Assembly: GCA_033286805.1 (NCBI GenBank)
Contig: GCA_033286805.1_4727.1
Reading direction: 5' to 3' (one strand)
DNA from: a phage
DNA: 64,000 nt
The notes beneath the pieces were generated by a model, which was given only the letters and a program-made list of their open reading frames with translations, searched no databases and had not been told where the DNA came from. The position numbers and the translations under genes are program-made. How positions within the stretch are numbered: position 1 is the first letter of the stretch; each line of letters opens with the position of its first letter. Shown here piece by piece: positions 7,470 through 31,965 of the stretch.

Positions 7470-7475
7470 TCGTCG

Positions 7476-8113: not shown

Positions 8114-8118
8114 AAACC

Positions 8119-8148: not shown

Positions 8149-8166
8149 GAAATATGCCGTTAAACG

Positions 8167-15129: not shown

Positions 15130-15149
15130 AAAAAAGAAATGCTATACAA

Positions 15150-15183: not shown

Positions 15184-15199
15184 GATTATAGTTTATTTA

Positions 15200-15589
15200 T
15201 TAACGCGTTGCATTCTGGATGATTTCTTTTCCGATCTTAACCAAAGCGGGTATCTGTACAGCGGTTGCGCCTCGATGACGAAACGCGGTCGTTAACGCGG
15301 TATCGATACTCACCGCACGTCCGTGAAGACGATCGAAATAGACTTGAGTGATTGCGGTAGCGTAATCCTTTCGCTGTTTCTTGGTTTGGCTCAACAGCGC
15401 CGCACTATGACTAACGATGAAGTAAGCGATTAAGAAGAACGCCGCTGACCGCGAACCAGGTAGAAAACCTTGTCGCTTAGGGAGCATCTCACAATCGCGA
15501 ACACTATTATCGTTCGCCAGCTCTTCCATATCAACACAGCATAATTTTGCATAGGTGTGGAGATAGTGGGTAAAAGTTGAATTTAACAT
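15200..15589 (-). CDS. hypothetical protein
   Basis: ATG 15589 with GAGGAAAG SD; last ORF of minus block ending at hairpin 15150-15183. Confidence 0.45.
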   Translation of the reverse strand: MLNSTFTHYLHTYAKLCCVDMEELANDNSVRDCEMLPKRQGFLPGSRSAAFFLIAYFIVSHSAALLSQTKKQRKDYATAITQVYFDRLHGRAVSIDTALTTAFRHRGATAVQIPALVKIGKEIIQNATR

Positions 15590-15695
15590 TTTTCTTTCCT
15601 CGATTACAATGAGTTCAATGTATAGCTTAAACGTCACAGAACGACGTATAACGGTTTGTTTTAATTTCTAATGGGTTTCCTTATCTAAGATTGAA

Positions 15696-16058
15696 TTAAA
15701 GCGCTCTGAAGAGTTCTGTAGCGTTCTCGTCACGTAAACAGGCTTCGTTCAACAATTCAGCTAACAGCTTCGACCGAACTTCAACAAATGTCCTGAGGCG
15801 ATGCTCCCATTCTAAACGGATAGTGTACGTATTATCCAGGTTTTTGTAATCAACGACAGATACCGAGCAGCGGGGTTCACGTTTGTTCACAGCACTCCAA
15901 ACATCACGGATAACCGTCACGCCTTTCTTGGTGCATGTAAACGTTAAAATACAGCGGTTATTCGCAGCTTCTTCACGGACGCCAACAAATTCACTTCGTA
16001 ACGATGAGACTTTGATCAGTCGGTCAATGGCGAGCGATAAACCGATACGTTGTTGCAT
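15696..16058 (-). CDS. small protein, tandem paralog family member
   Basis: Shares motif NRCILTFTCTKKG with next gene (MRCVRLTFVCTTLGK); AGAGGGGA SD before ATG. Confidence 0.5.
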   Translation of the reverse strand: MQQRIGLSLAIDRLIKVSSLRSEFVGVREEAANNRCILTFTCTKKGVTVIRDVWSAVNKREPRCSVSVVDYKNLDNTYTIRLEWEHRLRTFVEVRSKLLAELLNEACLRDENATELFRAL

Positions 16059-16503: not shown

Positions 16504-16947
16504 TTAACACTGTGTTCCATTCGATAAGCGGGTGGTATCAAAACGATCCAGTTGGTGTACAATGCTATTAGCAACACGATGCAAATAGTGTATTTTGTCC
16601 ATTCGTGAAATCGCAGAAATCGTCCAGCAAGCCTCTGACGTCCAATAGGTGCCGTCTTCACTAAGGCTAACGTTATAAACTAACTTCGTCATCACATTTC
16701 TCGCCTTATGCTCAGCAGACCAGAATATGTTTTCTAACACATCCTTCCCCGTTTGTGAAAACACGAACCCAAGCTTCACGTCGAAGTCGGATGCTTCAAG
16801 ATTAACGCAGTGAAGATGATTCTCTAACGGCGCAAAAGAGGCTAAACGTTCCAGCGCGTTTTGCAGTGTGGGATGATCGAGCTTTTCGAGATCATCCACA
16901 GGTTGTTCAGGTACAATCGCGATCGATTTACAGAATTTAATTTCCAT
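16504..16947 (-). CDS. small protein, possible distant paralog
   Basis: Weaker related motif KLGFVFSQTGKD; preceded by palindromic element 16978-16995. Confidence 0.5.
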   Translation of the reverse strand: MEIKFCKSIAIVPEQPVDDLEKLDHPTLQNALERLASFAPLENHLHCVNLEASDFDVKLGFVFSQTGKDVLENIFWSAEHKARNVMTKLVYNVSLSEDGTYWTSEACWTISAISRMDKIHYLHRVANSIVHQLDRFDTTRLSNGTQC

Positions 16948-16964
16948 GGTAGGTTCCTCTTGAT

Positions 16965-16995
16965 AGATGGTAGTAACGGGGATACCGCGGTATCC
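16965..16995 (-). promoter_or_regulatory. TAGTAA + GGATACC palindrome element, copy 1
   Basis: ggTAGTAAcGGGATACCgcGGTATCCC; 18-bp perfect palindrome at 16978-16995; ~31 nt upstream of ATG of 16504-16947(-). Confidence 0.45.
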
Positions 16996-17004
16996 CCTAA
17001 GTCT

Positions 17005-17475
17005 TTATAACACGCCCCAAGCCATATTGGGTACAGGCTCGTTACGTTCGATGTAATACATCAAGCGTTCTTTAAGTTTGGTTAACGCCTCAGCAACGAT
17101 GTTCTCTATGGCGACGACCTTTTCCATATTGCTCATCGTATCCTTCCACGTGAACCATTCGATCAAATTAACGGTGTGTAAGACCTTGTTATCGTCGGTC
17201 ATAACCTGGGTATTTTCACGACGATCGCGGGTTGTATACAACGGCGTTTGTATATTCGTTTTAATACGTGTCCAAAGCTCTTCCAGGAACTCACTCGATC
17301 GACTATCTGCCGTGACGATAAGCTCACTACGTACTGATTGTTCTCCTCGCTTTTCAATAACAAATAAACCATCGTAATCGATGTTCATCAATTTACGGAG
17401 GTTATCATTGCTATTCCAGTCTTTTACAACGGCAGGAAGTCGGCTATTGTAACCTTCAGGCAATCTCTCAATCAT
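17005..17475 (-). CDS. hypothetical protein
   Basis: ORF on dominant strand; overlaps next gene by 8 nt. Confidence 0.5.
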   Translation of the reverse strand: MIERLPEGYNSRLPAVVKDWNSNDNLRKLMNIDYDGLFVIEKRGEQSVRSELIVTADSRSSEFLEELWTRIKTNIQTPLYTTRDRRENTQVMTDDNKVLHTVNLIEWFTWKDTMSNMEKVVAIENIVAEALTKLKERLMYYIERNEPVPNMAWGVL

Positions 17476-17905
17476 CGGTTTCTGCTCCTATATCACGTTT
17501 AAGGTCGGCCACCAGTTTTTCATAATGGTCTTTTATTACATTGGCAATAACGAATTGCACTTTTCTCACCAGCTGCTCATTGGCATCACTGAACGTAAGA
17601 TGCTCACGCACTTCAACCGGACGTGATACACCGCCGATATCGTAGACTTTGTTCGATGTACGGCGAGCAATCACTGGAAGCGGTTCCACGGCGGCCAGTG
17701 CAGTACAGATTTCCGTAACGAGTTCTTGAATGCTGCTTCTGCCTTCGATAATAACAGAACAGCGATAGACATCTACCTCGTTAAGCTGTTCAACGACATC
17801 AGCCTTGATTTTGAAATTTCCAATAAGCGAGCTCACCAAAGTGCTATGCCAGTTGTTCACCACCCCGACCAACAGCGGATGATTCTCAAGATCTCTTCTA
17901 TTCAT
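17468..17905 (-). CDS. hypothetical protein
   Basis: ORF on dominant strand; preceded by hairpin 17944-17966. Confidence 0.5.
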   Translation of the reverse strand: MNRRDLENHPLLVGVVNNWHSTLVSSLIGNFKIKADVVEQLNEVDVYRCSVIIEGRSSIQELVTEICTALAAVEPLPVIARRTSNKVYDIGGVSRPVEVREHLTFSDANEQLVRKVQFVIANVIKDHYEKLVADLKRDIGAETDD

Positions 17906-17943
17906 CAGTTAGCTCCTAAATAGATCTACAACGAACTTTCGAT

Positions 17944-17966
17944 GGAAGGGAGTATGTTTCCCTTCC
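17944..17966 (-). terminator. GGAAGGGA/TCCCTTCC hairpin (H4)
   Basis: Perfect 8-bp stem, 7-nt loop; between minus genes 18081-18371 and 17468-17905. Confidence 0.5.
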
Positions 17967-18080
17967 TTGGGTTCGTTTATTGCGTTACGAAGCTTTACAG
18001 CTTGCGTAAACCACAACGGTTCCATTGTTGATTACCTCAACATCATCCTGGTCCGTTTGATCGCAAGTTTGGTGTCCGCA

Positions 18081-18371
18081 TTAACTCCCTCTGTGGTGCG
18101 AAAACAAAACATCTAACTGTTCCCGTTGTTCTTTTAAGCATGCAGGAAGCTGGTCTTCCCGTACCGTTCCGATTTCCAACGTGATGTACCAACGTTGTTC
18201 TGAGGCCTGCCATTGAAAACTGCTCTGTAACCGCAGGATGTTAGGATCACGTACCTTGTTTGCACTGTAACGGTTGAACCAATCCAGGTATTCTGCTTTC
18301 CCTTCCTCGTCGGCAACGTAACGCTGCACGCTGTTCTTCCCTTTGTTCTCGTATCCCGTTGCACGTATCAT
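18081..18371 (-). CDS. hypothetical protein
   Basis: Start set at ATG 18371 overlapping upstream stop (ATGA coupling). Confidence 0.45.
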   Translation of the reverse strand: MIRATGYENKGKNSVQRYVADEEGKAEYLDWFNRYSANKVRDPNILRLQSSFQWQASEQRWYITLEIGTVREDQLPACLKEQREQLDVLFSHHRGS

Positions 18372-19150
18372 GCGAACGTTTCTCCTGTAATGTGTTGTGG
18401 GCGTTGTAGCATGGTAACATCCCATTGTACGATCCGGCTCCGGCTTACCAGCATCATGACGGATTCATCATCAAGCCCTGGTTGCGCAACCGGCAACCAA
18501 CGTTCGTTAAGCACCTTCGCTTCAACGCGTTTCTTGCGGGGATTGTAACGCACCTCGCTGACCCAAGCGAATCCAAGCGGATGCACAACCCGTGGATAAT
18601 ACATGCGAAGCAATTGATGCATTTGATCCATTGCCTCCAAGCTCGCATCCGCCAGGTAAGGTTTCACCATGGCAAGCTTTTTGGTGTAATACGTTCCAAC
18701 GGTATGGTTCGCCCACCCAGGAAGCGCGTGATGGAATCCTACCTGTAATTGTGTATTGCCGTTCACCTTCAGCCAACCGTATTGTCCCGCCGCACGTCCC
18801 TCGTCAGTATCGATCCATGTAAGTATATCGATGAACGCACGATCGGCGATCTCGATGCGTTCCACCCGTTCATCCAACGCACCACGTACCACGAATCCGC
18901 TCGCGCTCAGCCGTGCAGGATGCTGGCTACGATGTGCGTACCAATTCTTGTTGCCGGTAAGCAGGTAAGGATACAAGTGCGCACCACGCCAAACAACCTT
19001 TCCGTTCGTCCCGTCGACGCAACGTACACGCATCCCAGCCTGACCGCTGCTGTAGCATGCTACCCTCACGCATTCGTTTTGAACATCGCTCGGTAACGCC
19101 AGGTATTCATCTCCAGTAAACATGGTATCAAAAATCAATGCTTCTTTCAT
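18368..19150 (-). CDS. hypothetical protein (260 aa)
   Basis: First ORF downstream of promoter box 19234-19257. Confidence 0.55.
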   Translation of the reverse strand: MKEALIFDTMFTGDEYLALPSDVQNECVRVACYSSGQAGMRVRCVDGTNGKVVWRGAHLYPYLLTGNKNWYAHRSQHPARLSASGFVVRGALDERVERIEIADRAFIDILTWIDTDEGRAAGQYGWLKVNGNTQLQVGFHHALPGWANHTVGTYYTKKLAMVKPYLADASLEAMDQMHQLLRMYYPRVVHPLGFAWVSEVRYNPRKKRVEAKVLNERWLPVAQPGLDDESVMMLVSRSRIVQWDVTMLQRPQHITGETFA

Positions 19151-19233
19151 CTAAAAAGATCCTCTGTTTTTCACGTTAATTAAACAACGTATTGATTTCT
19201 ATTTGACACAATACGAACATTGTACGTATCTAT

Positions 19234-19257
19234 CACTTAGGTAATATAGTCGTGAAA
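19234..19257 (-). promoter_or_regulatory. conserved 24-bp promoter-like box, copy b
   Basis: CACTTAGGTAATATAGTCGTGAAA; 84 nt upstream of ATG of 18368-19150(-). Confidence 0.55.
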
Positions 19258-19370
19258 GGATTTGCATTAAAGCAAGGGTTTTGTTTTTTAAGAAGGGATG
19301 GATTTAGAAGAGGTGTTTCAAGGAAGGTAAACGAGGATAGGTATTTTGATTTAAGTAAGTAAGTAAGATG

Positions 19371-19516
19371 TTATCTGTATTTGTTAAAAGTGTATTGTCT
19401 AAGTTATCTTGTTTATCTTAGGTTATGTCTTATTGTTTAATCGTTTTATCTTTGTATGTTTAAGTTGTTTTATTTATCTTGTTTGTTTATTTAAAAGTAA
19501 GTTAATAAGCTTATCT
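19371..19516. repeat. six dispersed TTATCT(T) copies in AT-rich non-coding region, plus (AAGT)4 microsatellite at 19353-19368
   Basis: TTATCT at 19371, 19404, 19414, 19446, 19484, 19511. Confidence 0.6.
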
Positions 19517-19531
19517 TCAAAACAATGGATA

Positions 19532-19564
19532 ACATGTGTTTACCACCTTAACGGTAACACATGT
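19532..19564. repeat. inverted repeat ACATGTGTT / AACACATGT (9-bp stem, 15-nt spacer)
   Basis: Perfect reverse complements read directly. Confidence 0.6.
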
Positions 19565-19612
19565 CATCTGTGCATTACACTCCGCTATCACTTCGTTACA
19601 TGCTTATATGTT

Positions 19613-19800
19613 GGATAACTCAAAAAACATTTGTGATACTCTTCTTCACGTTGTTCATCAGAGTATCTCGTCTATACTCATTGCATTCGTATACGACATA
19701 ACCGTTATACGCTAACGCTACGCTTATAGCTTGATAACTCTAAGGATAAAAACATAAACTCGCTTCGCTCGTTTAGTTTTTCTTTTTCTTAGAGTTATCC
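19613..19800. repeat. GGATAACTC boxes: direct at 19613-19621 and 19732-19740, inverted at 19792-19800; 13-bp inverted repeat GATAACTCTAAGG / CTTAGAGTTATCC
   Basis: Exact 13-bp inverted repeat at 19733-19745 and 19788-19800; third box 120 bp upstream. Confidence 0.6.
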
Positions 19801-19963
19801 TGTTGCTCGTCTCTAAAGGACTTCGCTCCTCCCCCGTCCCCCGAAGGGGCCGAGGTCGTGGAAATTTTACTTTCCAAATACATTTACAACATCTGTAAAC
19901 TTTTACTCCAGGTACTTAATCTTATCATTAGAAATTATAAAAGAGAATAAACACAAACATAAA

Positions 19964-19995
19964 CCTTCCTCCAACCCAACAGGGAAGGAGGAAGG
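19964..19995 (-). terminator. CCTCC/GGAGG palindromic hairpin (H5)
   Basis: ccttcctcc-aa-ccc-aaca-ggg-aa-ggaggaagg, 17 nt downstream of stop of 20012-20905 gene. Confidence 0.7.
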
Positions 19996-20011
19996 GAGAG
20001 ATTAATTAAAA

Positions 20012-20905
20012 TTAATCAGCGACGTTATAACCGAATACTGCTTTACCGTAGGTGTGAGTACCGTTAGCTAACGACAGCACCAGCACATGGTTGTACGTAG
20101 CGTTAACGCCCTTGTCAGTAGACTCGGTGGTAGCACCGTTATAGACAAAGGTAGCCGTTTGCAGATTGGCTTTCAGTTCATTGATGATATCATCACTTAC
20201 GCCGGTCTGCTCTTTGATCAGGGTGGTCAGGTTACCTGCTAAGCTTGCATCGATATTTACTTCGTTGCCAGTAATAGCTTGTAAACCTGGAGCGTAAGTA
20301 CTGAAGTCTAACGGATAGGTTAACAGACGTGCTGACGTTTTGGTACCATCGCCTTCATCAACGTAGGTTAAGTTACCCAGGTTGGTAACCTTGATGATGT
20401 TAGCCAGATCCAGCGTGGTGTTATAAACTTTAACTTGAACAGAGCCATACCACGCCAACGAATCTTCTTTGGCTTCCAGGGTGATCGTCTGGATACCTGA
20501 CTGATCAAAGGTAACCTGAGTAGCTAACGTTTCGGCTTTGATGTCTTTCGTTTTATCCAGGAACTTCTCACCGGAAGGCGTGATCATACCGTAGCGTTGA
20601 GCTACAAGGTCAACCACATCACCGATGGTGGTGTTCGCCTCAACGTTAACACGTACAGCGATCTTCTGGAACCACTTAGCCAGATCCAGACGATGGTAGG
20701 TGACATCGCGGTTATTGAAGTAAGGGGTACCTTCACCAGGACTAAGTGTTAAAGTTGCTTCTGGAGCAGAAGGATTCTTTTCTTTAAGGACGTATTTAAG
20801 GTCGGTGTATTTAAAGTTGGCACCAGTGTCGGCGTTGAGCTGGTTAATCTCATCAACGATAAGTTGCCAAGGTGTTTTTAAAGTAAGCGATACTTGAGCT
20901 GTCAT
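20012..20905 (-). CDS. abundant virion protein, paralog family member A
   Basis: Strong codon bias; shares YxNRxDL / LAWYGSV-type blocks with 21048, 31966, 33788, 34650 genes; followed by hairpin 19964-19995. Confidence 0.7.
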   Translation of the reverse strand: MTAQVSLTLKTPWQLIVDEINQLNADTGANFKYTDLKYVLKEKNPSAPEATLTLSPGEGTPYFNNRDVTYHRLDLAKWFQKIAVRVNVEANTTIGDVVDLVAQRYGMITPSGEKFLDKTKDIKAETLATQVTFDQSGIQTITLEAKEDSLAWYGSVQVKVYNTTLDLANIIKVTNLGNLTYVDEGDGTKTSARLLTYPLDFSTYAPGLQAITGNEVNIDASLAGNLTTLIKEQTGVSDDIINELKANLQTATFVYNGATTESTDKGVNATYNHVLVLSLANGTHTYGKAVFGYNVAD

Positions 20906-21047
20906 TTTCTACCTCTATGGTTGTTACATCACTCTCAAAAGATGTAAGTGTTTACAGAAATAAGTATATTTTATATTAAATGTGAATAATATGGAGAACG
21001 ACTCCGAATCTCCTTTTCGACCATCAAAAATCAGAGGACACACAATC

Positions 21048-21590
21048 ATGGCCTTAGACTTTAACAAAGCAGCGAAATCCCTTCTGCTTGATCTTATCAA
21101 CACCAAAGCAACCCGTGCACTGGCCGAACAAGAACTGCAGTTCGGTACCCCGGGGGCATCTTCCGAACATGAAAAGAACACCGTTATTCAGCTGGACGCT
21201 GCGCCTGAAGCAGAAAACCTGCAGGGTAGTCAGCAGTTCTACTACGATCGTCTGGCTCTGTCCGAAGTTTTCGCTGATGTAACCGGCGACGTTACTTTCG
21301 AACTGCCGCACGGTACCGACAGCATCCAGGCTTCTGAACTGGTAAGCAAGCTGGTCACCAAATTCGGCCTGGCTTCCCTGAACGGTGAAATCAAAGAAGA
21401 AACCTTCCAGCTGTCTGCTGGTACTGTTGGTCAGGTAACTCTGAGTGCGATCGATAATGGTCTGGTATATACCGGCACTCTGCAGGTTGCTCTGACCTAT
21501 GCAGCAGCACCGAAAGACCAACTGGCAACTGTTCTGGCGGATAACGTAGCTGATGGCTTCGTGAAACCGACCGTTAGCGTTGTTGGCTAA
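21048..21590 (+). CDS. abundant virion protein, paralog family member B
   Basis: ATG 21048 with GAGGA SD; strong codon bias; blocks QQFYYDRLAL ... LVYTGTLQV. Confidence 0.7.
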   Translation: MALDFNKAAKSLLLDLINTKATRALAEQELQFGTPGASSEHEKNTVIQLDAAPEAENLQGSQQFYYDRLALSEVFADVTGDVTFELPHGTDSIQASELVSKLVTKFGLASLNGEIKEETFQLSAGTVGQVTLSAIDNGLVYTGTLQVALTYAAAPKDQLATVLADNVADGFVKPTVSVVG

Positions 21591-21602
21591 TACCAATAGC
21601 TT

Positions 21603-21643
21603 AGAGCAATAGTATGGGTTTTGTACAGCTCGGCTATTGCTCT
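21603..21643 (+). terminator. hairpin with 10-bp perfect stem and 21-nt loop
   Basis: agagcaatag ... ctattgctct; 13 nt after stop of 21048-21590. Confidence 0.35.
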
Positions 21644-21792
21644 TCTACAATTTGGTTGTAACAATCTGCGTGGTTGCACGCTTATCTTTCTCATTGAGCG
21701 CTTCGTGTGAAGCGTGGTGTTGAAAGGGTTGTGGATCTCCTCAAGCGGCCAGGGACCCAGACCAACCTGAATAAACACGAACACCTGTTAAG

Positions 21793-21825
21793 CCCCTCCT
21801 CATCCGTTATTGGGTGAGGAGGGGT
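21793..21825. terminator. CCTCC/GGAGG-type hairpin (H6, divergent)
   Basis: cccctcctca-tcc-gttat-tgg-gtgaggagggg; between 21048-21590(+) and endolysin 21888-22523(-). Confidence 0.55.
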
Positions 21826-21887
21826 CTTATACGTCTTTATGCGTTCCGTTCGTTCTGGAGCGTTTTAGGACGGTTTACTGCAAGGTT

Positions 21888-22523
21888 TTATTCAACACTG
21901 AAACCGTTCAAACAGATAGCTTCGTAACGCTTACGTTCACGACGTTTACGCGCCTGCCAACCGTAAATGAACTTCTCGTCTTTCTCACGACGTTCAGCTA
22001 ATTCGATGTAATAGGTGCTCTGCATGTCCAGCATCGCATCGATGAGATAATCCTTACCAGTTGCGCCACGCTTAGCGATGTAGGCATCAAGAGCTGCCAG
22101 TGATTTGGGACCCATTGCACCATCAGCATCAATATCTTTCCAGTAAGTTTGACGGTTGTTCATGACGTTCAGGTAACGCTGAAGGTTCTTAACCGCAACC
22201 GTTTTACCTGCATTGATACCCAGGTCAAAGAGACGGTCAGCCAAGAACACAGAACGTTTCATGACTTCGTCAAGCTTCATCTTATCCCAGAAGTGGGTCT
22301 TGTAGATAAAGAACGCCATTTCCGTGGTAAGGTTACGCATGTTACCGTCCCACCCGAATTTCGTTTTCAGCGTGGTTTTGTACTGATCCGCAAGCGCTTT
22401 CGTAATGCCGTGGTTTGTACATTTTCCGCTGTCGTCTGGGTCATCAACATACCCGCCTTCAACATCGGTTTTGTCGCGAATGATGAATTCGCAGGTAAAA
22501 TCTTTTTCAGTAATCTTAGCCAT
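21888..22523 (-). CDS. endolysin, GH108 N-acetylmuramidase-like with C-terminal peptidoglycan-binding region
   Basis: N-terminal motif EGGYVDDPDDSGKCTNHGIT matches GH108 signature EGGYvndp.DpGG.TkyGIT; GAGGAG SD 6 nt before ATG 22523. Confidence 0.8.
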   Translation of the reverse strand: MAKITEKDFTCEFIIRDKTDVEGGYVDDPDDSGKCTNHGITKALADQYKTTLKTKFGWDGNMRNLTTEMAFFIYKTHFWDKMKLDEVMKRSVFLADRLFDLGINAGKTVAVKNLQRYLNVMNNRQTYWKDIDADGAMGPKSLAALDAYIAKRGATGKDYLIDAMLDMQSTYYIELAERREKDEKFIYGWQARKRRERKRYEAICLNGFSVE

Positions 22524-22649
22524 TAGAACTCCTCGTTGGAATAACGATTTAGAGGAACAGGGAAGCCCTAGAACACGATAAACGATTTAATCCAGGCAAA
22601 CCCCAGACTAAACTTTTCTAAGCGTTAGAACGCGTTCTAGAGCGCAATA

Positions 22650-24698
22650 TCAAATACCTTTGGTTCCCTTCACGTGATGTGCGATTTCTTCAACCATTGC
22701 ACGCAGGGCACGAAGCTGTTGGTCGTGTTCGTACCAACCGCCTAACAGAACCCCGCTATACACCATGGTGTCAAGACTTAACAGTCCTTTATCTGATACG
22801 TTGATCATTTCAGGGAACTGTTCTTGAACACGCTGTGCGATAACACCGATCTTCTCGACATCAGGATCGTAGTTGTGACGGAAACGGGCAAGCCCGCTGC
22901 GCGCCATTTCACGTAAACGTTCACTGAGAGATTCCGGATGATCTTTCAGATAACGAATGTCGTGTTTACTGCGTTCATCCGAGCGGATGTATGCGTTAGG
23001 AACATCGATGTTACTGTTGAAGTACAGCGCACTACCACCACCTGCAGAGTTCCCCCAATAGAAGCGTGTGATCTCACCGCCGCCATTCTCCGTGATGATG
23101 ACATGTTTACCTAAACGCGTACCACCATTACCATCAACGAAGACCAGTTTGTTTCCGCTGTAAGAACCCCAGAACAAGCGTGTATCGATGATGTGTGTTG
23201 CGGCGAGACGGGCGTTACGTGGTGTAGAATACACGGTGTTAACATCTTGCTGTGCATGCGCATCGGAAGCGATCCCGTAGTTCTGTACGTTACCCAACCC
23301 TACCTGCGCTTTTGTAACAGCATGAGGGTTATCCCGACGGTTGGCGTGAGCGTTAACCAGATCACCCGCTAATTTCTGAATTGCCCAGTTGGTAGACTGT
23401 GGTGTCATGTAACGGTTCGTTGCAGAACCACCTTGCGCTTCAGCTTGGTTAGCGGTTGGGTAGTTCTCAACACTTCCTAACCCTACTTGTGCTTTAGACA
23501 CTTGGTGTGGGTTATTCTTATCGGCGATGTGTGCATTAAGCGGAACTAACGCAAAGGTCTCAATGGACGCTTTGGTTGTGTTCGGTGCCATTAATCGGTT
23601 AGCTGCAACACCAGCACGCGCTTCTTCTTCAGAAGCCATTGGGTAGTCTTGCACATTCCCTAACCCAACCTGTGCTTTGGTCACCCTGTGTGGGTTGTTA
23701 TAATCGGCTTTATGCGCATTAAGCGGAATCAATGCGAACTGTTCAATCGATGCAACGGTACGTAGCGGCGTCATGAAACGGTTGTTCGCTGTTCCGGCTT
23801 TCGCCTCATCATCCGAAGCGGTCGGGAAGTTATCAACGTTCCCAAGGTTAACCTGTGCTTTGGTGACACTGTGTGGGTTATCCCGACGGTTAGCATGCGC
23901 GTCGACTAGATCGCCCGCCAGTTTAGCAATCGCCCAGCCAACCGTTTGTGCGGTCATGTAACGGTCAGGTGCGGTACCGGCTTCTGCCTCCGCCTTGTTT
24001 GCGGTAGGATAGTTCTGTACGTTACCTAGTCCGACTTGGGCTTTTGTTACTTCGTGTGGGTTATCGGTACGGTTAGCGTGAGCGTAATGCAGATCGGTTA
24101 GATCTTTATCCGCCGCTTGCATGTCTTTGCGTAGCTGATCGATTGCCGCCCAGAGACGGTTATCGGACGCAGCATCACCGATGAGTATTGCGGCTTTTAA
24201 CGAATAGATCGCTAAGCAAAGATGTTCGGTACCGTAAATAGCACTAACGTGGTGGATGTGTGGTTCAGGCGGATAGAGTTCCGGTTTGTTCTTGATGTCA
24301 TCCCAGTTGATCGGACGATCGTCAAGTTTGAGTTCTTCGATAGCCTGATATAACGCGTCAATAAGACTTACGTAAACACCACCGATGATACGATAGTCGT
24401 TAATTAACGTCCCCTCGATATCATCGTTGATAATGGCGATGGCTGCACAGATTTCTTTACCCGCGTAAAGCGTAGCGTCCTGATACAAGAAGATAGGTTT
24501 GTAGTCCACGCCTCGCACCAGTGTCTTACCGGTAAGCTTTTCAGTGATGACCAGACTTTCGGTGAAGAACGGTCCGCCATCAAGGGCGTAACATTTATTC
24601 TCGGTTCGTGGAACGGTATGTTCTTCGCCAACGATGTGGTTGCTGGCGAGTGTACCGGTCCAGTCCTCGGGGTACTTCAGGGTAATTGGTGTCGACAT
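22650..24698 (-). CDS. tail fibre with C-terminal S74-type intramolecular chaperone domain
   Basis: Five ~57-aa repeats (H.ANRRDNPH.VTKAQVGLGNV.NY...EA..G...NRYMTP); C-terminal SDERSKHDI motif (SDxRxK) typical of autoproteolytic fibre chaperone domains. Confidence 0.85.
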   Translation of the reverse strand: MSTPITLKYPEDWTGTLASNHIVGEEHTVPRTENKCYALDGGPFFTESLVITEKLTGKTLVRGVDYKPIFLYQDATLYAGKEICAAIAIINDDIEGTLINDYRIIGGVYVSLIDALYQAIEELKLDDRPINWDDIKNKPELYPPEPHIHHVSAIYGTEHLCLAIYSLKAAILIGDAASDNRLWAAIDQLRKDMQAADKDLTDLHYAHANRTDNPHEVTKAQVGLGNVQNYPTANKAEAEAGTAPDRYMTAQTVGWAIAKLAGDLVDAHANRRDNPHSVTKAQVNLGNVDNFPTASDDEAKAGTANNRFMTPLRTVASIEQFALIPLNAHKADYNNPHRVTKAQVGLGNVQDYPMASEEEARAGVAANRLMAPNTTKASIETFALVPLNAHIADKNNPHQVSKAQVGLGSVENYPTANQAEAQGGSATNRYMTPQSTNWAIQKLAGDLVNAHANRRDNPHAVTKAQVGLGNVQNYGIASDAHAQQDVNTVYSTPRNARLAATHIIDTRLFWGSYSGNKLVFVDGNGGTRLGKHVIITENGGGEITRFYWGNSAGGGSALYFNSNIDVPNAYIRSDERSKHDIRYLKDHPESLSERLREMARSGLARFRHNYDPDVEKIGVIAQRVQEQFPEMINVSDKGLLSLDTMVYSGVLLGGWYEHDQQLRALRAMVEEIAHHVKGTKGI
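23214..24086 (-). repeat. coding tandem repeats (5 x ~57 aa, NPH-VTKAQVGLGNV core) in fibre gene
   Basis: Repeat units read from translation of 22650-24698. Confidence 0.8.
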
Positions 24699-24711
24699 AA
24701 CCTGGAGGTCC

Positions 24712-27306
24712 TTATAACGTGACTGTACCTAATTTGGTTGTCTTATTGAGATTAATGACAGAGATCTGGGTATCGCTGGTCGTAATCGTTCCGATATTAA
24801 CGCGCTGTCCTTTATCATCTTCTTGCTTGTAGATGGTTAACTCCAGCTCTAACTGGTCGCCATTAGGAACAACGGAAACGTACCATGTTTTATTACCTGG
24901 TGAACTATTATAGTCTTTTAGGTTATAATGGCCTTTAGGTAAGGTCATGACCTTACCGGCAAACAAGCAAGTGATGTCTTCGTTGATGTAGATATCGTAA
25001 CCGGAAGCAGCAACGACCGTAGAAACCATGTAGACATGTTTGACGGTACCTGCGAGGTATTCGGCTACGCTTGGTCCGTATGCTCTGAATACCTGTCCAC
25101 CATTGGATAAACGGTACGCTTCCCCAAGGTCGACGTACCCCAGACCCCATACCGGATGGACGTTGTAACGACGTCCGCTGCTGGCCAAATACTCATAAAG
25201 GTCATCTACCGATAACCCAACCCACGCACCACTGGCGTTCTTAGCACCACGGAATTGAAAATCGTTTGCGTTTCCTGGAGTAGCAACGCGCACGGACATC
25301 GCCCCGGCGATTAACCAACCATCAGCGCATTTACGATACCCTAATGGTCCCCACGCCCCCAGAGTGTTGTCAATGTTATTGATTTGGTCCCGAAGCGTGT
25401 AAGTTACCGTTGTGACGACCCCCGTTACGGTAATGTTCCCTTCCCGAGCGCTGGTCGTCACTTCAGACGTCATGATAGCCGCCTTCCTGGAGACAGGATC
25501 GTACACCGATATGAACATCAAGCAGGGGGCCCCTGTGGACGCCGGAGGAACCACGATAGAGCCGCGTATAACGGAGTATCTCTCAAGCTTCGGCGACGTG
25601 TAGGTATCCCAACAAAGTTTGGCCGCTCTGTCGAGTTCTGCCTGCGTGATGCTTATCGATGCCCCCTTTAAGGCTAACGTATCAGGGTCGACCTCAACCC
25701 TGCTGCTTAATCTCCCTTCCTGTAGCCAACTGCCAGTCACTATCGTCTGGTCGTCGCTCATGTGAATTGTCGCGAAACGTTCGCTCACTGAACCGCCTAC
25801 GTGGACGCGACTGGTTGGCGGGAATCCCATCACATCGACCACGCTGTTCTTATAGCGATAACTCAAATCCCAATCAGCGGTTATTAACCGCTTTTCGAAA
25901 TTGCTCTGACCCCCTGGGATGCGGGATAAGACATAGACCTTGTTCTTCGCCGTGAAGCCAACGAAGCCGTGTGGGCCACAGGACCCAACAACGCGGTCCT
26001 TGATGTTAATCCAGTTCCCCACCTCGTACGCGGATATTGGGGTGAGTTTTGCAAGTTCGTCGAAGACATTACCAGCGTAGTCACCAATGCGATACGATCG
26101 AACCATCGGCGAGGCCAGGTTATCATTCACACAGCTGGTAACCAGACCGTCCTCGCGAATGACCATGTTCCCGGTAAGGTTGGCCCCACCCCATGCCCAG
26201 AATCCGTCTTTATAATCACGGTCACGAGTTGACATCGTACAAGGGCCACGAAAGGACACCGAACCATCGGAGTTCACTTGTAATGACGGCGTTCCAGCAT
26301 TGGGACTTAATGTCCATTGCTTCGTATCCAGGTTCAAATCGACGTACCAGATCGTTGTCCCCTGGTCGGCGATATTCACGGTACTGTTAGTGTACCATGC
26401 CGTCGTGCAGTAGATTCGCGCAATGTTACCTTTTACAACAGCGTAATTTCTAATACCCGCACGAATAGGGACAAGCGTCGTTAATTGACTAGGATACGCT
26501 GTATGGTTTAACACTTCCCAGAAAAGAATATGGTCGAGGTTGGTTTTCGTCGTTCCCTCAAAAATCTTTCCACTAAACCCGGTTTCTTTGGTGAACTGTA
26601 CAGCCGCACCATTTTTAATGTCCGATAACATACAGGTATGTACATCGAGCCCGTTTTTCCCTTCATACGCCCACCAGACTAACAGGTACACTTTGTTTTT
26701 GTAGACGAACGTACTACAGCGCGCCATGCTGTCGGTAATACCCTCTACCGACCCGGTACACATGGCGGCGACATGCTTCTCTACGTTGAATGTGCCGTTA
26801 GTCAGAACGATGTAGGGCTGTGTGTTCTCGTCGTTTGCGTCCATCGCGACACCCATCATCACGCCGTGGTTATGACACCAGACCGATTGTGGGATTTTAG
26901 GTAGTGCTGTAGGCCTATACTGGCGACTGGTACCTATGGCGGTATCGAGCAGCCCTTCACCATTGTTTTTACAGATAGCGTAATACACCCCGTTTTTCAT
27001 GCTGTTGGATGCCGAGCGAAGGATGGAAACACTCCCGTCTGCTTCCTGACAGATTCCGTAGGTACGACGTTCGGTCATGGCTATCGCGCCATCAGCTGAC
27101 CCTTCGATGGCGAGAGGGAAGTAACTTTGATCGCCAATTTGTTCGATATCGGTTACGTCAATATCAATGTACTTTTCCATCTCGGTGTTGAACTCTGCGG
27201 TGCTGTACGCGCCGAGATCGCCAGCCTTTAACCCTGTTGGATTGCTTCGACTAGCGATACGCTCAGTAACGCTGGTCACCAGTTCGCTAAATTTTTTCAT
27301 TGCCAT
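24712..27306 (-). CDS. putative receptor-binding protein / tail fibre or spike (864 aa)
   Basis: Inside fibre cassette; N-terminus MAMKKFSEL...ASRSNP shares anchor motif with the two small downstream proteins. Confidence 0.6.
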   Translation of the reverse strand: MAMKKFSELVTSVTERIASRSNPTGLKAGDLGAYSTAEFNTEMEKYIDIDVTDIEQIGDQSYFPLAIEGSADGAIAMTERRTYGICQEADGSVSILRSASNSMKNGVYYAICKNNGEGLLDTAIGTSRQYRPTALPKIPQSVWCHNHGVMMGVAMDANDENTQPYIVLTNGTFNVEKHVAAMCTGSVEGITDSMARCSTFVYKNKVYLLVWWAYEGKNGLDVHTCMLSDIKNGAAVQFTKETGFSGKIFEGTTKTNLDHILFWEVLNHTAYPSQLTTLVPIRAGIRNYAVVKGNIARIYCTTAWYTNSTVNIADQGTTIWYVDLNLDTKQWTLSPNAGTPSLQVNSDGSVSFRGPCTMSTRDRDYKDGFWAWGGANLTGNMVIREDGLVTSCVNDNLASPMVRSYRIGDYAGNVFDELAKLTPISAYEVGNWINIKDRVVGSCGPHGFVGFTAKNKVYVLSRIPGGQSNFEKRLITADWDLSYRYKNSVVDVMGFPPTSRVHVGGSVSERFATIHMSDDQTIVTGSWLQEGRLSSRVEVDPDTLALKGASISITQAELDRAAKLCWDTYTSPKLERYSVIRGSIVVPPASTGAPCLMFISVYDPVSRKAAIMTSEVTTSAREGNITVTGVVTTVTYTLRDQINNIDNTLGAWGPLGYRKCADGWLIAGAMSVRVATPGNANDFQFRGAKNASGAWVGLSVDDLYEYLASSGRRYNVHPVWGLGYVDLGEAYRLSNGGQVFRAYGPSVAEYLAGTVKHVYMVSTVVAASGYDIYINEDITCLFAGKVMTLPKGHYNLKDYNSSPGNKTWYVSVVPNGDQLELELTIYKQEDDKGQRVNIGTITTSDTQISVINLNKTTKLGTVTL

Positions 27307-27318
27307 TATTCACCTCAG

Positions 27319-27804
27319 TTAAATCGGCGAATCAGGTAATTGGCCATCGACAATCTCGGTAGTGGCCACTTTACGTGTCGCAGCAAGATGTGCTGTGCCC
27401 TGAACTTTGTTCCAGGTACCGATACGCATCACGTTTTTATAGCTGCTGTTACTGTCGCTCAATGTGTAAACAAAACCGTTATCCGTGACAGCAAGATAGA
27501 TCCAACCGGTTGATGCGCTAACACCAGAAACATCCAACGTGGTCGCGGGCACCGTTCCTGTTATCGTGTTGTATTCCGCTTCACCTTGGCCGATGCTGAT
27601 CCTCCCGTTGTTGTAGCTGGCTGCTGGAATTATTTTATTTCGGCTGAAGAAAAGGAACGGAAGATAACGTTGTGTGACAAGAGGTGTAAGTTTAGGAGCC
27701 ACTTCTGTCTTGGCGTACACGTTTGTCTGCGTCGTTGTTACTGAATGAGGATTCTTCTTGGCCAGGTAGGCTCCCCATTCAGAAAGCAATGTCGATAACT
27801 TCAT
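27319..27804 (-). CDS. small tail-fibre-associated protein
   Basis: N-terminus MKLSTLLSEWGAYLAKKNPHSVTTTQ carries a single copy of the fibre repeat core. Confidence 0.5.
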   Translation of the reverse strand: MKLSTLLSEWGAYLAKKNPHSVTTTQTNVYAKTEVAPKLTPLVTQRYLPFLFFSRNKIIPAASYNNGRISIGQGEAEYNTITGTVPATTLDVSGVSASTGWIYLAVTDNGFVYTLSDSNSSYKNVMRIGTWNKVQGTAHLAATRKVATTEIVDGQLPDSPI

Positions 27805-27808
27805 ACGA

Positions 27809-28324
27809 CTACCCCATATAACGTTTTTGGCCGAGGATAAAGACCTTGTTAAGGACCACCGAGGTAATGCCTGACGCGTTGCAACTCACCTGCCCAACAC
27901 GAATCGCTGTTGATGAATCAGCCCCAGCACTACTGTTCCAACTCCAGCCGACCGACCCACCTTTCTGATGAATAAACAGATATCCGGTTTTGTTTGCCCA
28001 ATCGGAAGTAAGATTTTTGATGTCTAACGTTCCTTTCGCCAGAATATAGTCGGTACCAGCGATCATGACGGGGATTTCAGGATACGAGATTACCGTACCG
28101 CTGGCGGTAACGTTGCTGATGCGATCACTACGAATATCAGTACAATCACCGAAATACGCTACGGGGAGTATCCCCTTAGGGAGCTTTTTGCCGATTCTCG
28201 TATCGATAGTGTTTTTATCGGGTGCGTCGATTTGCGCTGCAGTGACTTGGTTAGGGTTATCCTTCCTTGCGTACCATGTCGTCATGCGAGCACCCAATTC
28301 ACTCATTTTTGTGCCCATTTTCAC
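27809..28324 (-). CDS. small tail-fibre-associated protein
   Basis: N-terminus MKMGTKMSELGARMTTWYARKDNPNQVTAAQ resembles fibre repeat core and N-termini of 24712 and 27319 genes. Confidence 0.5.
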   Translation of the reverse strand: MKMGTKMSELGARMTTWYARKDNPNQVTAAQIDAPDKNTIDTRIGKKLPKGILPVAYFGDCTDIRSDRISNVTASGTVISYPEIPVMIAGTDYILAKGTLDIKNLTSDWANKTGYLFIHQKGGSVGWSWNSSAGADSSTAIRVGQVSCNASGITSVVLNKVFILGQKRYMG

Positions 28325-28375
28325 ATCCTATCGAAAAATAAAAAGAAGGAAAGGTGGGTAGAACCCACCCATCCG

Positions 28376-30529
28376 TTATAACGTTTCGAAGTCGGTTGCT
28401 TTGATAACCGCGTTGAAGTTGGCAAGGAATTCCTTAAGCAATGCTTGGAAGACATCACGGAACGCTGTGTTCGTCTGCAAGCTGGTTAAATAATCGTTCT
28501 TAAGGTAATCGCTCAGCTTACCGATCTTCTGCATCTTCTCGCCGTCTTGGTTCTCTCCAGGTTCTTGGCTGTTGATGTTAACCCATTTGATCCCTTCGAG
28601 ATCACCATCGGCAAGGAAGTTGGCGGGTGTCTCATCGTCGTTCAGGATTTTAATCGTATCACTGGATTCAATGCCACCGTAAGCTTCCAGAAGCTGGTTG
28701 ACTGTTAGCGTGTTGGTGTTGATTGAACCATTGACACCATCAATACCGATGCCTGCACCTGTGATGGATGTCGCCGAAAGATCGATCGGTCCGGTTAACT
28801 TACCACCGTTGATCGGTAACGCACCAACTTGCTCGGCGGTGTGTGTATGGTTAGCTAACGCCGCAAACGCCACGATAGACTTATACGTCGAATACGGCGT
28901 CATATACGCTGATTGGTTGGTGTTGTCAGCCGCTTCAGTATCGGTAGCGACATTAAAGTTCTGCACGTTGCTGAGACCGACCTGCGCCTTCGTTACTTCA
29001 TGCGGATTGCTCTTATTGACAACGTGTGCTGCAAAACCATCACCAGCTAAAGCAGTGATTGCCGCTTTTGTCGCAGCCGGTGTCATATAGCGGTTGGTTG
29101 CTTCACCCGTTTGCGCCTCTTCGTCGGAAGCAACAGGATAGTTCTCAACGCTCCCCAAACCAACCTGAGATTTTGTTACTTGGTGTGGGTTTTCGGTATT
29201 CGCGATGTGACTACTGAACCCTTGACCAGCCAGTTGCTCGATTGCGTAACGAACAAGTATTGGCGTCATGTACTTGTTGTTAACTTGACCATCGATAGCT
29301 TCTTGGGTGGTGGCAACCCCGAAGTTTTGCACGCTCCCCAACCCAACCTGCGCTTTCGTAACAGCGTGGGGGTTATTGGTGTTACCGATGTGATCGGTAA
29401 CCGTTGGGGTGATTAATCCTGCGATAGCGGCTGCCGTGGTCGCAGGGGTCATGTATTTATCGTTAGCAACACCCGCAGCAGCTTCTACGTTAGATGCTAC
29501 ACCGTAGTTCAATACATTTCCTAACCCAACTTGAGCTTTGGTTACCCCGTGGGGGTTGTTCTTGTCTCCGGTATGGGTTGTCAACGTAGCGTTAACGTTA
29601 TCGATACGCGTGCTTAAGCCATCGGTGATTGCTTTGATTGCGGCTCGTACACCCACTGGTGTCGTGTACAGATTGGTGGCCGTACCGGTAATGGTTGCAT
29701 TACTATCGGCTGTACCGTAGTTCTCAACGTTTCCGAGTCCCACCTGGGCTTTCGTTACCTTGTGTGGGTTGTTATAGTTGCTGATGTGTGCAGCAGCACT
29801 ATCACCACTCAGGTTAGCGATCATCTTACGCGTCATCGCCAACGTCATGTACAGATTTTCACCGATGGTTTCCAGATCGCTCTCGGTCGCCGTTGTGAAG
29901 TTCTGAACATTCCCCAATCCAACTTGAGCCTTGGTTACCCCATGGGGGTTATCGCGACGATTCTCGTGCTGCAGCAATGCGGTCATTGCTTTATTGAACC
30001 CTTCTTCAAGCGGTTCTTTCAATGATTCGATTGCGGCCACCACATCGTCCCACGTCATTGTGTCGGTTTCGACATTATGTTGGTGGTTGATTGGTGGGAA
30101 TACGGAAGGAACGTCGGCAACCTTTTCCCAGAACGTAACGCGGGGATCGTAAAGGTTGTTGGCTAAAACGTTAAGAATTTGTTGTTGATCAAGTGTAAAC
30201 TCACCCCCCAGTGAATAGTAGTTCAGTTGCAACTGTCCACTGAATGCGGTGTCCAACAGCATGATGGAACCGTATAATTCCAGGCCGGTCAGCGCAGCCA
30301 TGGCACGGAAGGGGTGAGTGCATAAAAAGTCAACGCCTTCTTCCAGATACGCGTTTGTTTCAGGGTTGTAGATCTTTAACCCATTACGAAAATATGGCGC
30401 GTATTTAGGAACGAGAAAGTTAAATCCGGTCCCCGTGGAAGGACGGACAGTGACGAGTTCTTCTGGAACCCATGCGCCATCCAAATTCCCCTGCGGGTTA
30501 TACGGAAGGCGTTTAATTTCATCTGTCAT
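28376..30529 (-). CDS. tail fibre (717 aa) with six NPH-VTKAQVGLGNV repeats
   Basis: N-terminal domain paralogous to that of 22650-24698 (L.YP, GVD[YF], PP..H.H); six ~57-aa repeats; C-terminal ALPINGGKLTGP fibre-tip-like motif. Confidence 0.8.
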   Translation of the reverse strand: MTDEIKRLPYNPQGNLDGAWVPEELVTVRPSTGTGFNFLVPKYAPYFRNGLKIYNPETNAYLEEGVDFLCTHPFRAMAALTGLELYGSIMLLDTAFSGQLQLNYYSLGGEFTLDQQQILNVLANNLYDPRVTFWEKVADVPSVFPPINHQHNVETDTMTWDDVVAAIESLKEPLEEGFNKAMTALLQHENRRDNPHGVTKAQVGLGNVQNFTTATESDLETIGENLYMTLAMTRKMIANLSGDSAAAHISNYNNPHKVTKAQVGLGNVENYGTADSNATITGTATNLYTTPVGVRAAIKAITDGLSTRIDNVNATLTTHTGDKNNPHGVTKAQVGLGNVLNYGVASNVEAAAGVANDKYMTPATTAAAIAGLITPTVTDHIGNTNNPHAVTKAQVGLGSVQNFGVATTQEAIDGQVNNKYMTPILVRYAIEQLAGQGFSSHIANTENPHQVTKSQVGLGSVENYPVASDEEAQTGEATNRYMTPAATKAAITALAGDGFAAHVVNKSNPHEVTKAQVGLSNVQNFNVATDTEAADNTNQSAYMTPYSTYKSIVAFAALANHTHTAEQVGALPINGGKLTGPIDLSATSITGAGIGIDGVNGSINTNTLTVNQLLEAYGGIESSDTIKILNDDETPANFLADGDLEGIKWVNINSQEPGENQDGEKMQKIGKLSDYLKNDYLTSLQTNTAFRDVFQALLKEFLANFNAVIKATDFETL
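28834..29971 (-). repeat. coding tandem repeats (6 x ~57 aa, NPH-VTKAQVGLGNV core) in fibre gene
   Basis: Repeat units read from translation of 28376-30529. Confidence 0.8.
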
Positions 30530-30550
30530 GATGCGCCCTTTACAAGTTGT

Positions 30551-30580
30551 TAGTAAGTATGGGATACCCTGGGGTATCCT
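30551..30580 (-). promoter_or_regulatory. TAGTAA + GGATACC palindrome element, copy 2
   Basis: gtTAGTAAgtatGGGATACCctggGGTATCC; ~32 nt upstream of ATG of fibre gene 28376-30529(-). Confidence 0.45.
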
Positions 30581-30633
30581 GTGTTAACAGCGGTAAAATA
30601 TTACTGTAACTATAAAATAAGGGGGCCTCTCCC

Positions 30634-31914
30634 ATGTATACATTGGTAAAAACTTACGGATTACCCGTAGGTTCTGGCACGGCCTGGACAGCGCTTGAGG
30701 CGGGTGAAAGTGTCCTGAGTACGTTGTTCTCAACGTATCAAAAACTCAAGATCCAGGTCCATGAAAGCTATGCTGACCAGCAACAAGTTATTGATCTGTA
30801 CGCGTTCCAATCCGAGCTTCAAAACAGCAGTGATACGCTCAATGCGTGGCTGAAGGCGAAATCGGACGCACATACTAACCTCCGTGGACAGCCAGGCGAG
30901 CTGTCGATTAAAACCCACAAGCTTTATTGTCACGACGTTATTACAGTAGGCTTTCTCCCTAAAGTCGGTAATAGCGGCTATCATCCGAGCAACGCGATCC
31001 CTGAGTCGGAACGCACTGATATCCTGTTGACGAAAGCGAATACGAACTACGAAAATATCGGTAAGCATTGCTTGTTTACCGTAGGTGGTTATGTTCATCC
31101 TCACGTTTACGGTAAAGACGTCGGTGTCTATATCCAGGGCGGGTTCAAGACGGCACAGCGTAGCCAAGAAAACGATATCGGCATGATTGATTTTAGCCGT
31201 ATCGGGAGTTTGGAAATCCATGCCATCACAGAAGAGATGATTGCTGATTCCACGAAGCTCTTGCCGTATAAGGACGAGATGTACTTGCGGTTACCGCGCA
31301 AGGTCGCCGAAGATGAAACCGTCGCGCTGGTGTTCGGGGGATATTTACATCTTCTTGACGATTGTTACACGATCGTTAGTGACACGACAGCAAAAATAAA
31401 CTGCATTAACATGTTTCTTTATGAAAGATACTTCCGTTCCCGCAAATACCTTGATCTAACGTCTCTTGGTATTCTGTTGAACGAAGAAGACCCGCAGTCC
31501 GATATTGTTGCCAATCGTTTATTGTCCGATAAAGCATTAAAAGCGTGGGTGACGCATCCTTGCAGTTTCTGGGTGTATATCAAAGCAACATCGATTCAGG
31601 TTACGCAAGAACCTTTACCACGAAGTGGTGTACCAGGACAATATTTCTTAGGTAAGAAACCGGAAGGACTGATTCGAGCCGATCTTGGTGAGTTACCGGC
31701 TTACGTGCAGACCTATGAAAAACCGTTATGGGTACTTCACTCGCGCTGGGGACTTCGTAAGAACATGTTGTTTGAAAACACATTGTACAAGCACACCCGC
31801 GTTAAGCGGCTTAACGATACGCCTTATCTTCACCAGGTCTGGTTGGAAACGCACGCGACGTTGCAGACAGTACACAAGCTCGAATTGATCGATTCCAGTC
31901 AGAAAAACAAATAA
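30634..31914 (+). CDS. hypothetical protein (426 aa)
   Basis: ATG 30634 with AAGGGGG SD; plus-strand island between fibre cassette and paralog genes; ends before hairpin 31925-31956. Confidence 0.6.
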   Translation: MYTLVKTYGLPVGSGTAWTALEAGESVLSTLFSTYQKLKIQVHESYADQQQVIDLYAFQSELQNSSDTLNAWLKAKSDAHTNLRGQPGELSIKTHKLYCHDVITVGFLPKVGNSGYHPSNAIPESERTDILLTKANTNYENIGKHCLFTVGGYVHPHVYGKDVGVYIQGGFKTAQRSQENDIGMIDFSRIGSLEIHAITEEMIADSTKLLPYKDEMYLRLPRKVAEDETVALVFGGYLHLLDDCYTIVSDTTAKINCINMFLYERYFRSRKYLDLTSLGILLNEEDPQSDIVANRLLSDKALKAWVTHPCSFWVYIKATSIQVTQEPLPRSGVPGQYFLGKKPEGLIRADLGELPAYVQTYEKPLWVLHSRWGLRKNMLFENTLYKHTRVKRLNDTPYLHQVWLETHATLQTVHKLELIDSSQKNK

Positions 31915-31924
31915 CCAAACATAA

Positions 31925-31956
31925 CCCTCCTCCAACCCGTAAGGGAAGGAGGAGGG
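31925..31956. terminator. CCTCC/GGAGG palindromic hairpin (H7)
   Basis: ccctcctcc-aa-ccc-gtaa-ggg-aa-ggaggaggg then AATATGCTGTTA; convergent junction 30634-31914(+)/31966-32871(-). Confidence 0.75.
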
Positions 31957-31965
31957 AATATGCTG

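Follow-up and report, generated by a model that had tools for sequence, protein, structure and literature searches.

Two small hairpins followed by TTACTA in a Goslar-like jumbo phage genome: support for leader RNA stem-loops over a DNA operator

Escherichia phage vB_EcoM_Goslar is a 237-kb nucleus-forming jumbo phage of E. coli (Chimalliviridae), and the DNA analysed here, a 64,000-nucleotide (nt) stretch of a phage contig (hereafter the window; NCBI GenBank assembly GCA_033286805.1, contig GCA_033286805.1_4727.1), belongs to a close relative that shares 92-97% DNA identity with it. On the minus strand of the window two similar small inverted repeats, each followed by the hexamer TTACTA, end 30 nt (site 1) and 32 nt (site 2) ahead of the ATG codons at 16947 and 30529, respectively. 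A first-pass annotation of the letters alone had correctly located both elements, about 31 nt upstream of minus-strand gene starts, and had offered two explanations, a site for a dimeric DNA-binding protein or an RNA hairpin in the 5' leader, together with the suggestion of a distinct regulatory class, possibly for late or structural genes. The pair of similar small hairpins is real, and comparison with related phages, including the whole Goslar genome, supports the RNA-hairpin reading, but not the operator or the regulatory class. The parts of the two sites are as follows.

16978-16997, minus strand: site 1 stem-loop, as RNA GGGGAUAC-CGCG-GUAUCCCC; orthologous variants retain the stem.
16971-16976, minus strand: TTACTA hexamer of site 1, 1 nt 3' of the stem; TAGTAA on the plus strand, TTACAA in one relative.
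16945-16960, minus strand: Shine-Dalgarno sequence AGAGGAA (16954-16960) and ATG (16945-16947) of a 147-amino-acid orphan gene (16504-16947).
30562-30579, minus strand: site 2 stem-loop, as RNA GGAUACC-CCAG-GGUAUCC, in a 104-bp divergent gap; invariant in ten Goslar-like genomes.
30557-30561, minus strand: spacer CAUAC between stem and TTACTA, holding the only two substituted positions of the gap (30558 and 30559) among the ten genomes.
30551-30556, minus strand: TTACTA hexamer of site 2, 5 nt 3' of the stem; TAGTAA on the plus strand.
30527-30541, minus strand: Shine-Dalgarno sequence AAAGGG (30536-30541) and ATG (30527-30529) of a 717-amino-acid tail-fibre-like gene (28376-30529).

Site 1 is a perfect 20-bp palindrome (GGGGATACCGCGGTATCCCC), which the first-pass annotation had placed properly and made too short by dropping one G, and folded as RNA it gives an 8-bp stem with a CGCG loop at -14.7 kcal/mol. 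It lies 7 nt after the stop codon of the open reading frame (ORF) 17005-17475, within a 57-nt gap between two small co-directional orphan genes, neither of which (the 147-amino-acid gene included) has a Pfam or PHROG match, and the minus strand through the gap reads TAA-AGACTTA-GGGGATAC-CGCG-GTATCCCC-G-TTACTA-CCATCTATCA-AGAGGAA-CCTACC-ATG. The corresponding order at site 2 is AACACA-GGATACC-CCAG-GGTATCC-CATAC-TTACTA-ACAACTTGT-AAAGGG-CGCATC-ATG, with 7-bp arms around an asymmetric 4-nt centre and a folding energy of -11.2 kcal/mol; the CCAG centre is not palindromic, and the "perfect 18-bp palindrome" described there does not exist. The TAGTAA seen beside both palindromes is confirmed. The gap that holds site 2 separates the 717-amino-acid gene, which matches the PHROG tail protein and tail fibre families, from a diverging, conserved virion gene with 246 phage homologues; Goslar gp29 is a virion protein.

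Site 1 was compared across ten related genomes, and the site 2 gap was aligned in ten Goslar-like genomes. At site 1 it is the pairing, not the sequence, that stays constant. The window-type hairpin occurs in four of the ten genomes, while Goslar and three others (L004, L138 and L139) carry GGGGAC-ATCGCC-GTCCCC followed by the same GTTACTA, a version with a different loop, a different top to the stem and a shorter stem that is still a hairpin at -12.0 kcal/mol. In genome L135 an A-to-G change in the 5' arm (GGGGGTAC facing GTATCCCC) breaks the symmetry of the DNA and yields a G·U pair in the sense RNA, which folds at -14.1 kcal/mol (vs -14.7), whereas the antisense RNA, with an A·C mismatch, folds at -10.0 kcal/mol. 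Genome L140 has the loop CGCT (CGCU in RNA), which breaks the centre of the palindrome, and TTACAA in place of TTACTA; genome L141 has a leader 100% identical to that of the window ahead of a downstream protein that is 63% identical. Hairpin and TTACTA are found together at site 1 in both deep lineages. A dimeric DNA-binding protein requires conserved half-sites at a fixed spacing, and an RNA stem-loop requires pairing alone. The GGATACC and GGTATCC arms are 2 nt apart at site 1 and 4 nt apart at site 2, and this spacing, taken with the orthologous variants, argues against a dimeric operator and for a stem-loop in the sense-strand RNA. Of the two original explanations, the leader hairpin is the one supported, since the orthologues of site 1 differ in sequence and keep their pairing, in one case through a G·U pair that exists in the sense RNA alone.

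Three neighbouring features bear on how the two sites may be used.

17013-17040, minus strand: what is left of a strong upstream hairpin, now decayed and traversed by ORF 17005-17475; intact, with a stem of up to 13 bp, in Goslar-type genomes.
19233-19257, minus strand: early-promoter motif TTTCACGACTATATTACCTAAGTGA, of a type known from phiKZ-like phages (PMC7598289), preceding the operon (19150 to 15200) that holds site 1.
30592-30604, both strands: back-to-back TTAC boxes GGTAAAATATTAC (TATTTTACC on the minus strand), candidate divergent promoter cores.

The minus-strand gene string containing site 1 begins after the early-promoter motif and stops at a bidirectional terminator (15130-15199), and site 1 is thus intercistronic in an apparently early operon. 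Site 2 precedes the virion tail-fibre-like gene and heads a structural operon, so the two do not form a single late or structural class, and the proposed late or structural control falls away. The small hairpin of site 1 has 6 bp where the strong upstream hairpin is intact and 8 bp, the window type, where it has decayed. Relative to Goslar, the gene upstream (ORF 17005-17475) has lost its stop codon and gained about 20 codons by reading through the decayed copy. Identity is 36% between the two versions of the upstream protein and 63-99% among the downstream proteins, which marks the region around site 1 as mosaic. Site 2 falls in a low-diversity block (30200-30700) with 0-7 variable sites per 100 nt among the ten Goslar-like genomes, against 10-40 in the flanks deeper in both genes, and this block covers the 5' coding ends of both divergent genes as well as the gap. 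The TTAC boxes in the same gap resemble the phiKZ middle motif AAanTTACc and form a candidate bidirectional promoter core; judged on sequence, they are a better promoter candidate for site 2 than the hairpin with TTACTA. If they are used, the site 2 hairpin would lie a few nucleotides from the 5' end of the tail-fibre mRNA.

The chimallivirus family transcribes its genes by means of two multisubunit RNA polymerases that the phage itself encodes, and does not depend on the host enzyme. Conserved terminators of phiKZ consist of a hairpin followed by 5'-TTAT-3', with the motif BCCYCCCCHWWDGGGRRGGBYTTATKYYGT (PMC10914365), and occur also in 201phi2-1 (PMC11512511). Many of the mapped termination sites of phiKZ and 201phi2-1 are hairpins with TTAT alone or with no canonical tract, and dozens of them lie in 5' untranslated regions (UTRs) and are leaky (PMC10914365, PMC11512511). 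By analogy with these sites, the reading that we tentatively prefer is that both elements are leader or intercistronic RNA stem-loops acting as a leaky phiKZ-style attenuator or terminator, or as a protected transcript end. The stem-loops would form in the minus-strand (sense) RNA at both sites, that of site 1 acting within the intercistronic leader of the 147-amino-acid gene and that of site 2 within the 5' leader of the tail-fibre-like gene. Each would serve the phage's own multisubunit polymerases as a weak version of the chimallivirus "GC-rich hairpin then TTAT", with UUAC replacing UUAU, and would set the amount of transcript that reaches the downstream cistron while leaving an RNA end protected by the hairpin. 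We infer that the hairpins are transcribed, that they act on elongation or on RNA stability, and in which direction, from the anatomy of the sites and the analogy with phiKZ-like phages.

Several properties of the sites agree with this attenuator-like role. Both are stable GC-rich stem-loops (z of about -2.5 to -2.8), as phiKZ-type terminators require; TTA(Y) follows within 1-5 nt, and there is no long U-tract. Short GC-rich hairpins that lack a U-tract and lie 10-30 nt before the next ATG are common in the co-directional gaps of Goslar, which supports the same role, as does the enrichment here of the canonical hairpin with TTATGCYG. The longer small hairpin where the strong one has decayed, and the identity of the L141 leader, fit it loosely. 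Phages phiKZ and 201phi2-1 likewise have structured elements ahead of the ribosome-binding site in virion-gene or tail-gene leaders, namely conditional (leaky) 5'UTR terminators and short RNAs derived from 5'UTRs (PMC10914365, PMC11512511), but those were reported as RNAs and the present pair is known from sequence.

A third leader hairpin of the window, GGGTATTG-TTAA-CGCGATACCC (41362-41383, minus strand, z = -3.5), stands 19 nt before the ATG of gene 41075-41350, and in its Goslar orthologue (37193-37214) the loop and the upper part of the stem differ while the pairing is retained. A 9-bp GC-rich hairpin, AGGGCGGGA-atc-TCCCGCCCT, occupies the leader of Goslar gp233 (Goslar 222176-222224; 22176-22224 in genome L012) and may be the counterpart of the conserved 5'UTR-derived small RNA reported upstream of phiKZ gp182. 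Site 2 itself was considered as the equivalent of that conserved RNA and rejected, as gp182 matches Goslar gp233 and the gene is the wrong one.

A number of observations weigh against leaky termination at these sites. Neither hairpin has the CCYCC/GGRGG arms or the TTAT of the family terminators: the arms are GGGGATAC/GTATCCCC and GGATACC/GGTATCC instead of CCYCCCC/GGGRRGG, and TTAT(K)YYGT directly 3' of the stem is replaced by G-TTACTACC at site 1 and by CATAC-TTACTAAC at site 2. The stems of 7-8 bp fold at -11 to -15 kcal/mol, compared with about -28 kcal/mol for a canonical terminator, and there are two copies here where the canonical kind number dozens. A generic terminator scan of both strands for a stem-loop with a U-rich tract behind it (at least five T in eight) lists neither site. 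Behind intergenic hairpins there is a strong enrichment of TTAT (23 observed vs 6.2 expected) and of TATG (17 vs 4.0), but TTAC shows no enrichment (9 vs 5.5). With a strong hairpin already present a short way ahead of site 1, a second terminator looks redundant in Goslar-type genomes; at site 2, the divergent arrangement of the genes leaves little minus-strand transcription to be expected from upstream. Finally, the evidence for selection on pairing comes from three or four independent variants of site 1 alone, and site 2, being invariant in ten genomes, offers no covariation.

A close second to attenuation is a stabilising or processing role alone, which we regard as possible. RNase E or an enzyme like it would cut in AU-rich single-stranded flanks, and the stem-loop would mark the processing site or shield the end so created, 5' on the downstream mRNA or 3' on the upstream mRNA, with elongation unaffected. 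This draws on the same sense-strand pairing and accords with the lack of a U-tract at either hairpin and with the AU-rich flanks, namely UAAAGACUUA ahead of the stem at site 1 and CAUACUUACUAACAA behind that at site 2; moreover, should the TATTTTACC box (30592-30600) serve as a promoter of early-type geometry, 5-8 nt would separate the stem of site 2 from the 5' end. It does not account for the shared TTACTA, and the distance required is short, since in E. coli a 5' stem-loop protects an RNA only when it lies within a few nucleotides of the end.

The two leaders are more alike than chance. Their local alignment, from stem to first codons, beats 1991-1999 of 2000 shuffles, and the pattern GGATACC-N2-6-GGTATCC has exactly two matches in the window, where 100 shuffles give an expectation of 0.00. 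The likeness does not extend to a family of sites. A search for further copies, which the first-pass annotation had proposed and whose failure it had named as one half of what would refute the element, found none: near copies of the GGATACC inverted repeat (up to two mismatches) are absent outside coding sequence in the window, and the complete Goslar genome has the repeat at site 2 only, even with two mismatches allowed. A hairpin followed by TTACTA within 8 nt occurs in Goslar at the two orthologous sites and once inside a RuvC-like gene, and nowhere else. No Rfam covariance model scores above its gathering threshold in the window, and around the two sites there is one chance-level hit below threshold only; MAFFT did not bring the two sites into register, and the sequences are too few for a covariance model of their own. 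In the viral and metagenome collections the relatives are all Goslar-like genomes with 96% identity or more at the site 2 gene; the next homologues fall below 30%, and a 15-mer DNA scan for more distant relatives gave chance hits only.

Four other candidate signals were set aside. GGATACC and GGTATCC are four-fold over-represented in the whole window (20 observed vs 5.2 expected), and all 16 coding copies fall in the codon-pair registers GGT-ATC or GAT-ACC, a matter of codon usage and not of a DNA motif. The hairpin with TTACTA in the RuvC-like gene (10565-10593; Goslar 6594-6622) encodes the conserved catalytic motif DPGTDTLGASLL and is a chance match. CTATCA/ATCTATCA downstream of site 1 has no consistent context as a shared signal. 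A plus-strand late promoter at site 2 (TATG, 30557-30560), whose mRNA would start at the hairpin, was dropped, since six of the ten aligned Goslar-like genomes have TGTG or AGTG there instead.

With so restricted a distribution, it is also possible, to about the degree granted to stabilisation alone, that the two sites share no function and are ordinary leader hairpins, alike by common descent, by gene conversion of a short leader cassette or by chance. There are only two copies in 237 kb; site 1 of Goslar lacks the GGATACC arms, so that the stem similarity peculiar to the window lineage amounts to only about 4 bp; site 1 sits in the mosaic region described above; and the GAAATTAAA that follows the ATG at both sites is an ordinary codon string, with 11 copies in Goslar. 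Such an origin sits poorly with leaders that align better than 99.5% of shuffles, with the retention of hairpin and TTACTA at site 1 in both deep lineages, and with substitutions in the site 2 gap that are confined to the spacer between stem and TTACTA.

That the hairpin and TTACTA instead mark a transcription start, as a minor promoter type with a TTAC core for a phage RNA polymerase, seems to us doubtful. The phiKZ early and middle motifs and the Goslar early motif all have TTAC at their core, the locations suit a start (after the terminator-like hairpin at Goslar-type site 1, and in a divergent gap that requires promoters at site 2), and early-type geometry would place the start 16-20 nt before the ATG and so keep the Shine-Dalgarno sequence inside the leader. 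TTACTA also lies 15-40 nt upstream of 7 of the 247 Goslar genes, where 1.16 are expected from its genome-wide frequency. With a null matched to the AT-rich composition of upstream regions, however, the enrichment is not significant (8 vs 2.9 expected, p of about 0.01, rank 47 of 4096 hexamers), and within the window the hexamer is under-represented (16 observed vs 24.7 expected). The promoter explanation also has to accommodate TTACAA in L140, the absence of the remainder of the early motif at both sites, and the G·U variant of L135, which hints at transcription of the stem. A spacing of the phiKZ middle type (motif centred at -24) would put the start 0-5 nt ahead of the ATG and leave the Shine-Dalgarno sequence out of the transcript. 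Matches to known promoters are likewise missing: the four window matches to the extended, AT-rich early (virion RNA polymerase) consensus TTTCRCGRCTAYATTACYTARGTGA include neither site, with TTAC(T) alone shared, and the phiKZ late promoter TATG (start at G) is absent from the minus strand in both gaps. We hold it improbable that the pair represents an unrecognised start signal of the chimallivirus multisubunit RNA polymerase, a minor and perhaps middle-class promoter; if true, it would serve a handful of transcription units with neither the early motif nor TATG, and a structured element beside a TTAC core would set the start. The distinct regulatory class first proposed is not supported, as the element is limited to these two loci and neither the regions upstream of genes nor those behind hairpins show a significant excess of TTACTA.

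Least likely is a double-stranded DNA operator for a dimeric phage or host regulator, suggested by the perfect 20-bp palindrome of site 1, the identical 7-bp arms of site 2 and the highly conserved divergent gap around the latter, but opposed by unequal half-site spacing, by the other half-sites and yet another spacing of Goslar-type site 1, by relatives (L135 and L140) that lose symmetry and keep RNA pairing, by the lack of any further site with up to two mismatches in the window or in Goslar, and by the fact that these phages do not use the host RNA polymerase.

Other known systems resemble the pair in part. Like the operators of dimeric repressors, each element is an inverted repeat upstream of a gene, but their half-sites are variably spaced and differ between orthologues, and no regulon goes with them. 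T4-type phages have stem-loop-containing intergenic regulatory cassettes (PeSL) that flank shuffled early genes; site 1 is similarly a conserved short stem-loop leader between small, mosaically varying genes of an early operon, but no promoter was recognised in the site 1 cassette and only one such junction was seen. The virion RNA polymerase of phage N4 is a single-subunit enzyme that uses hairpin promoters with a 3-nt loop and specific bases. The present sites share with these a small hairpin just upstream of a possible start, but their loops are of 4-6 nt and variable, the polymerases are multisubunit and the start is hypothetical.

Three obvious kinds of signal were recognised in the window and in Goslar, namely the early-promoter motif, CCTCC/GGAGG hairpins with TTATGCYG, and Shine-Dalgarno sequences, and the element studied here is none of them. 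The 25-nt motif TTTCRCGRCTAYATTACYTARGTGA, found on the minus strand at 6521-6545, 19233-19257, 47415-47439 and 53896-53920, is strongly conserved, contains the phiKZ-like core TATATTAC and includes TCAC...GTGA as a short inverted repeat. It is present about 13 times in Goslar, always on the minus strand, and very probably serves Goslar-like phages as their early (virion RNA polymerase) promoter. Upstream of its copy at 19233-19257 is an 861-bp AT-rich stretch (19151-20011; equivalent Goslar gap 14972-15825) that has no convincing ORF and is rich in short repeats (TAAGTAAGTAAGTAAG and TTATCTT-like units). Long CCTCC/GGAGG hairpins followed by TTATGCYG lie at 3961-4006, 7470-7506, 8114-8166, 15130-15199, 31915-31965, 40994-41074, 52246-52318 and 59880-59910, and this family, abundant in the window and in Goslar alike, matches the published phiKZ terminator motif. 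The TTATGCYG tail contains TATG, the phiKZ late-promoter core, and follows the hairpin on both strands in convergent gaps; terminator and late-promoter signals may be fused in these hairpins. A run of 13 A (4010-4022) lies between two hairpins in the convergent gap 3961-4070. Elsewhere, a 766-amino-acid ORF (47528-49828, plus strand) is fully antisense to the 740-amino-acid major capsid gene (47603-49825, minus strand), and Goslar annotates the minus-strand gene.

In nucleus-forming jumbo phages the recognition of middle and late promoters and non-canonical termination are poorly defined, and reproducible signals near gene starts are useful leads. Two loci with ordinary short leader hairpins are too few and too ordinary to alter that picture. 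The pair does provide well-defined test sites in Goslar, where natural variants already separate RNA pairing from DNA symmetry.

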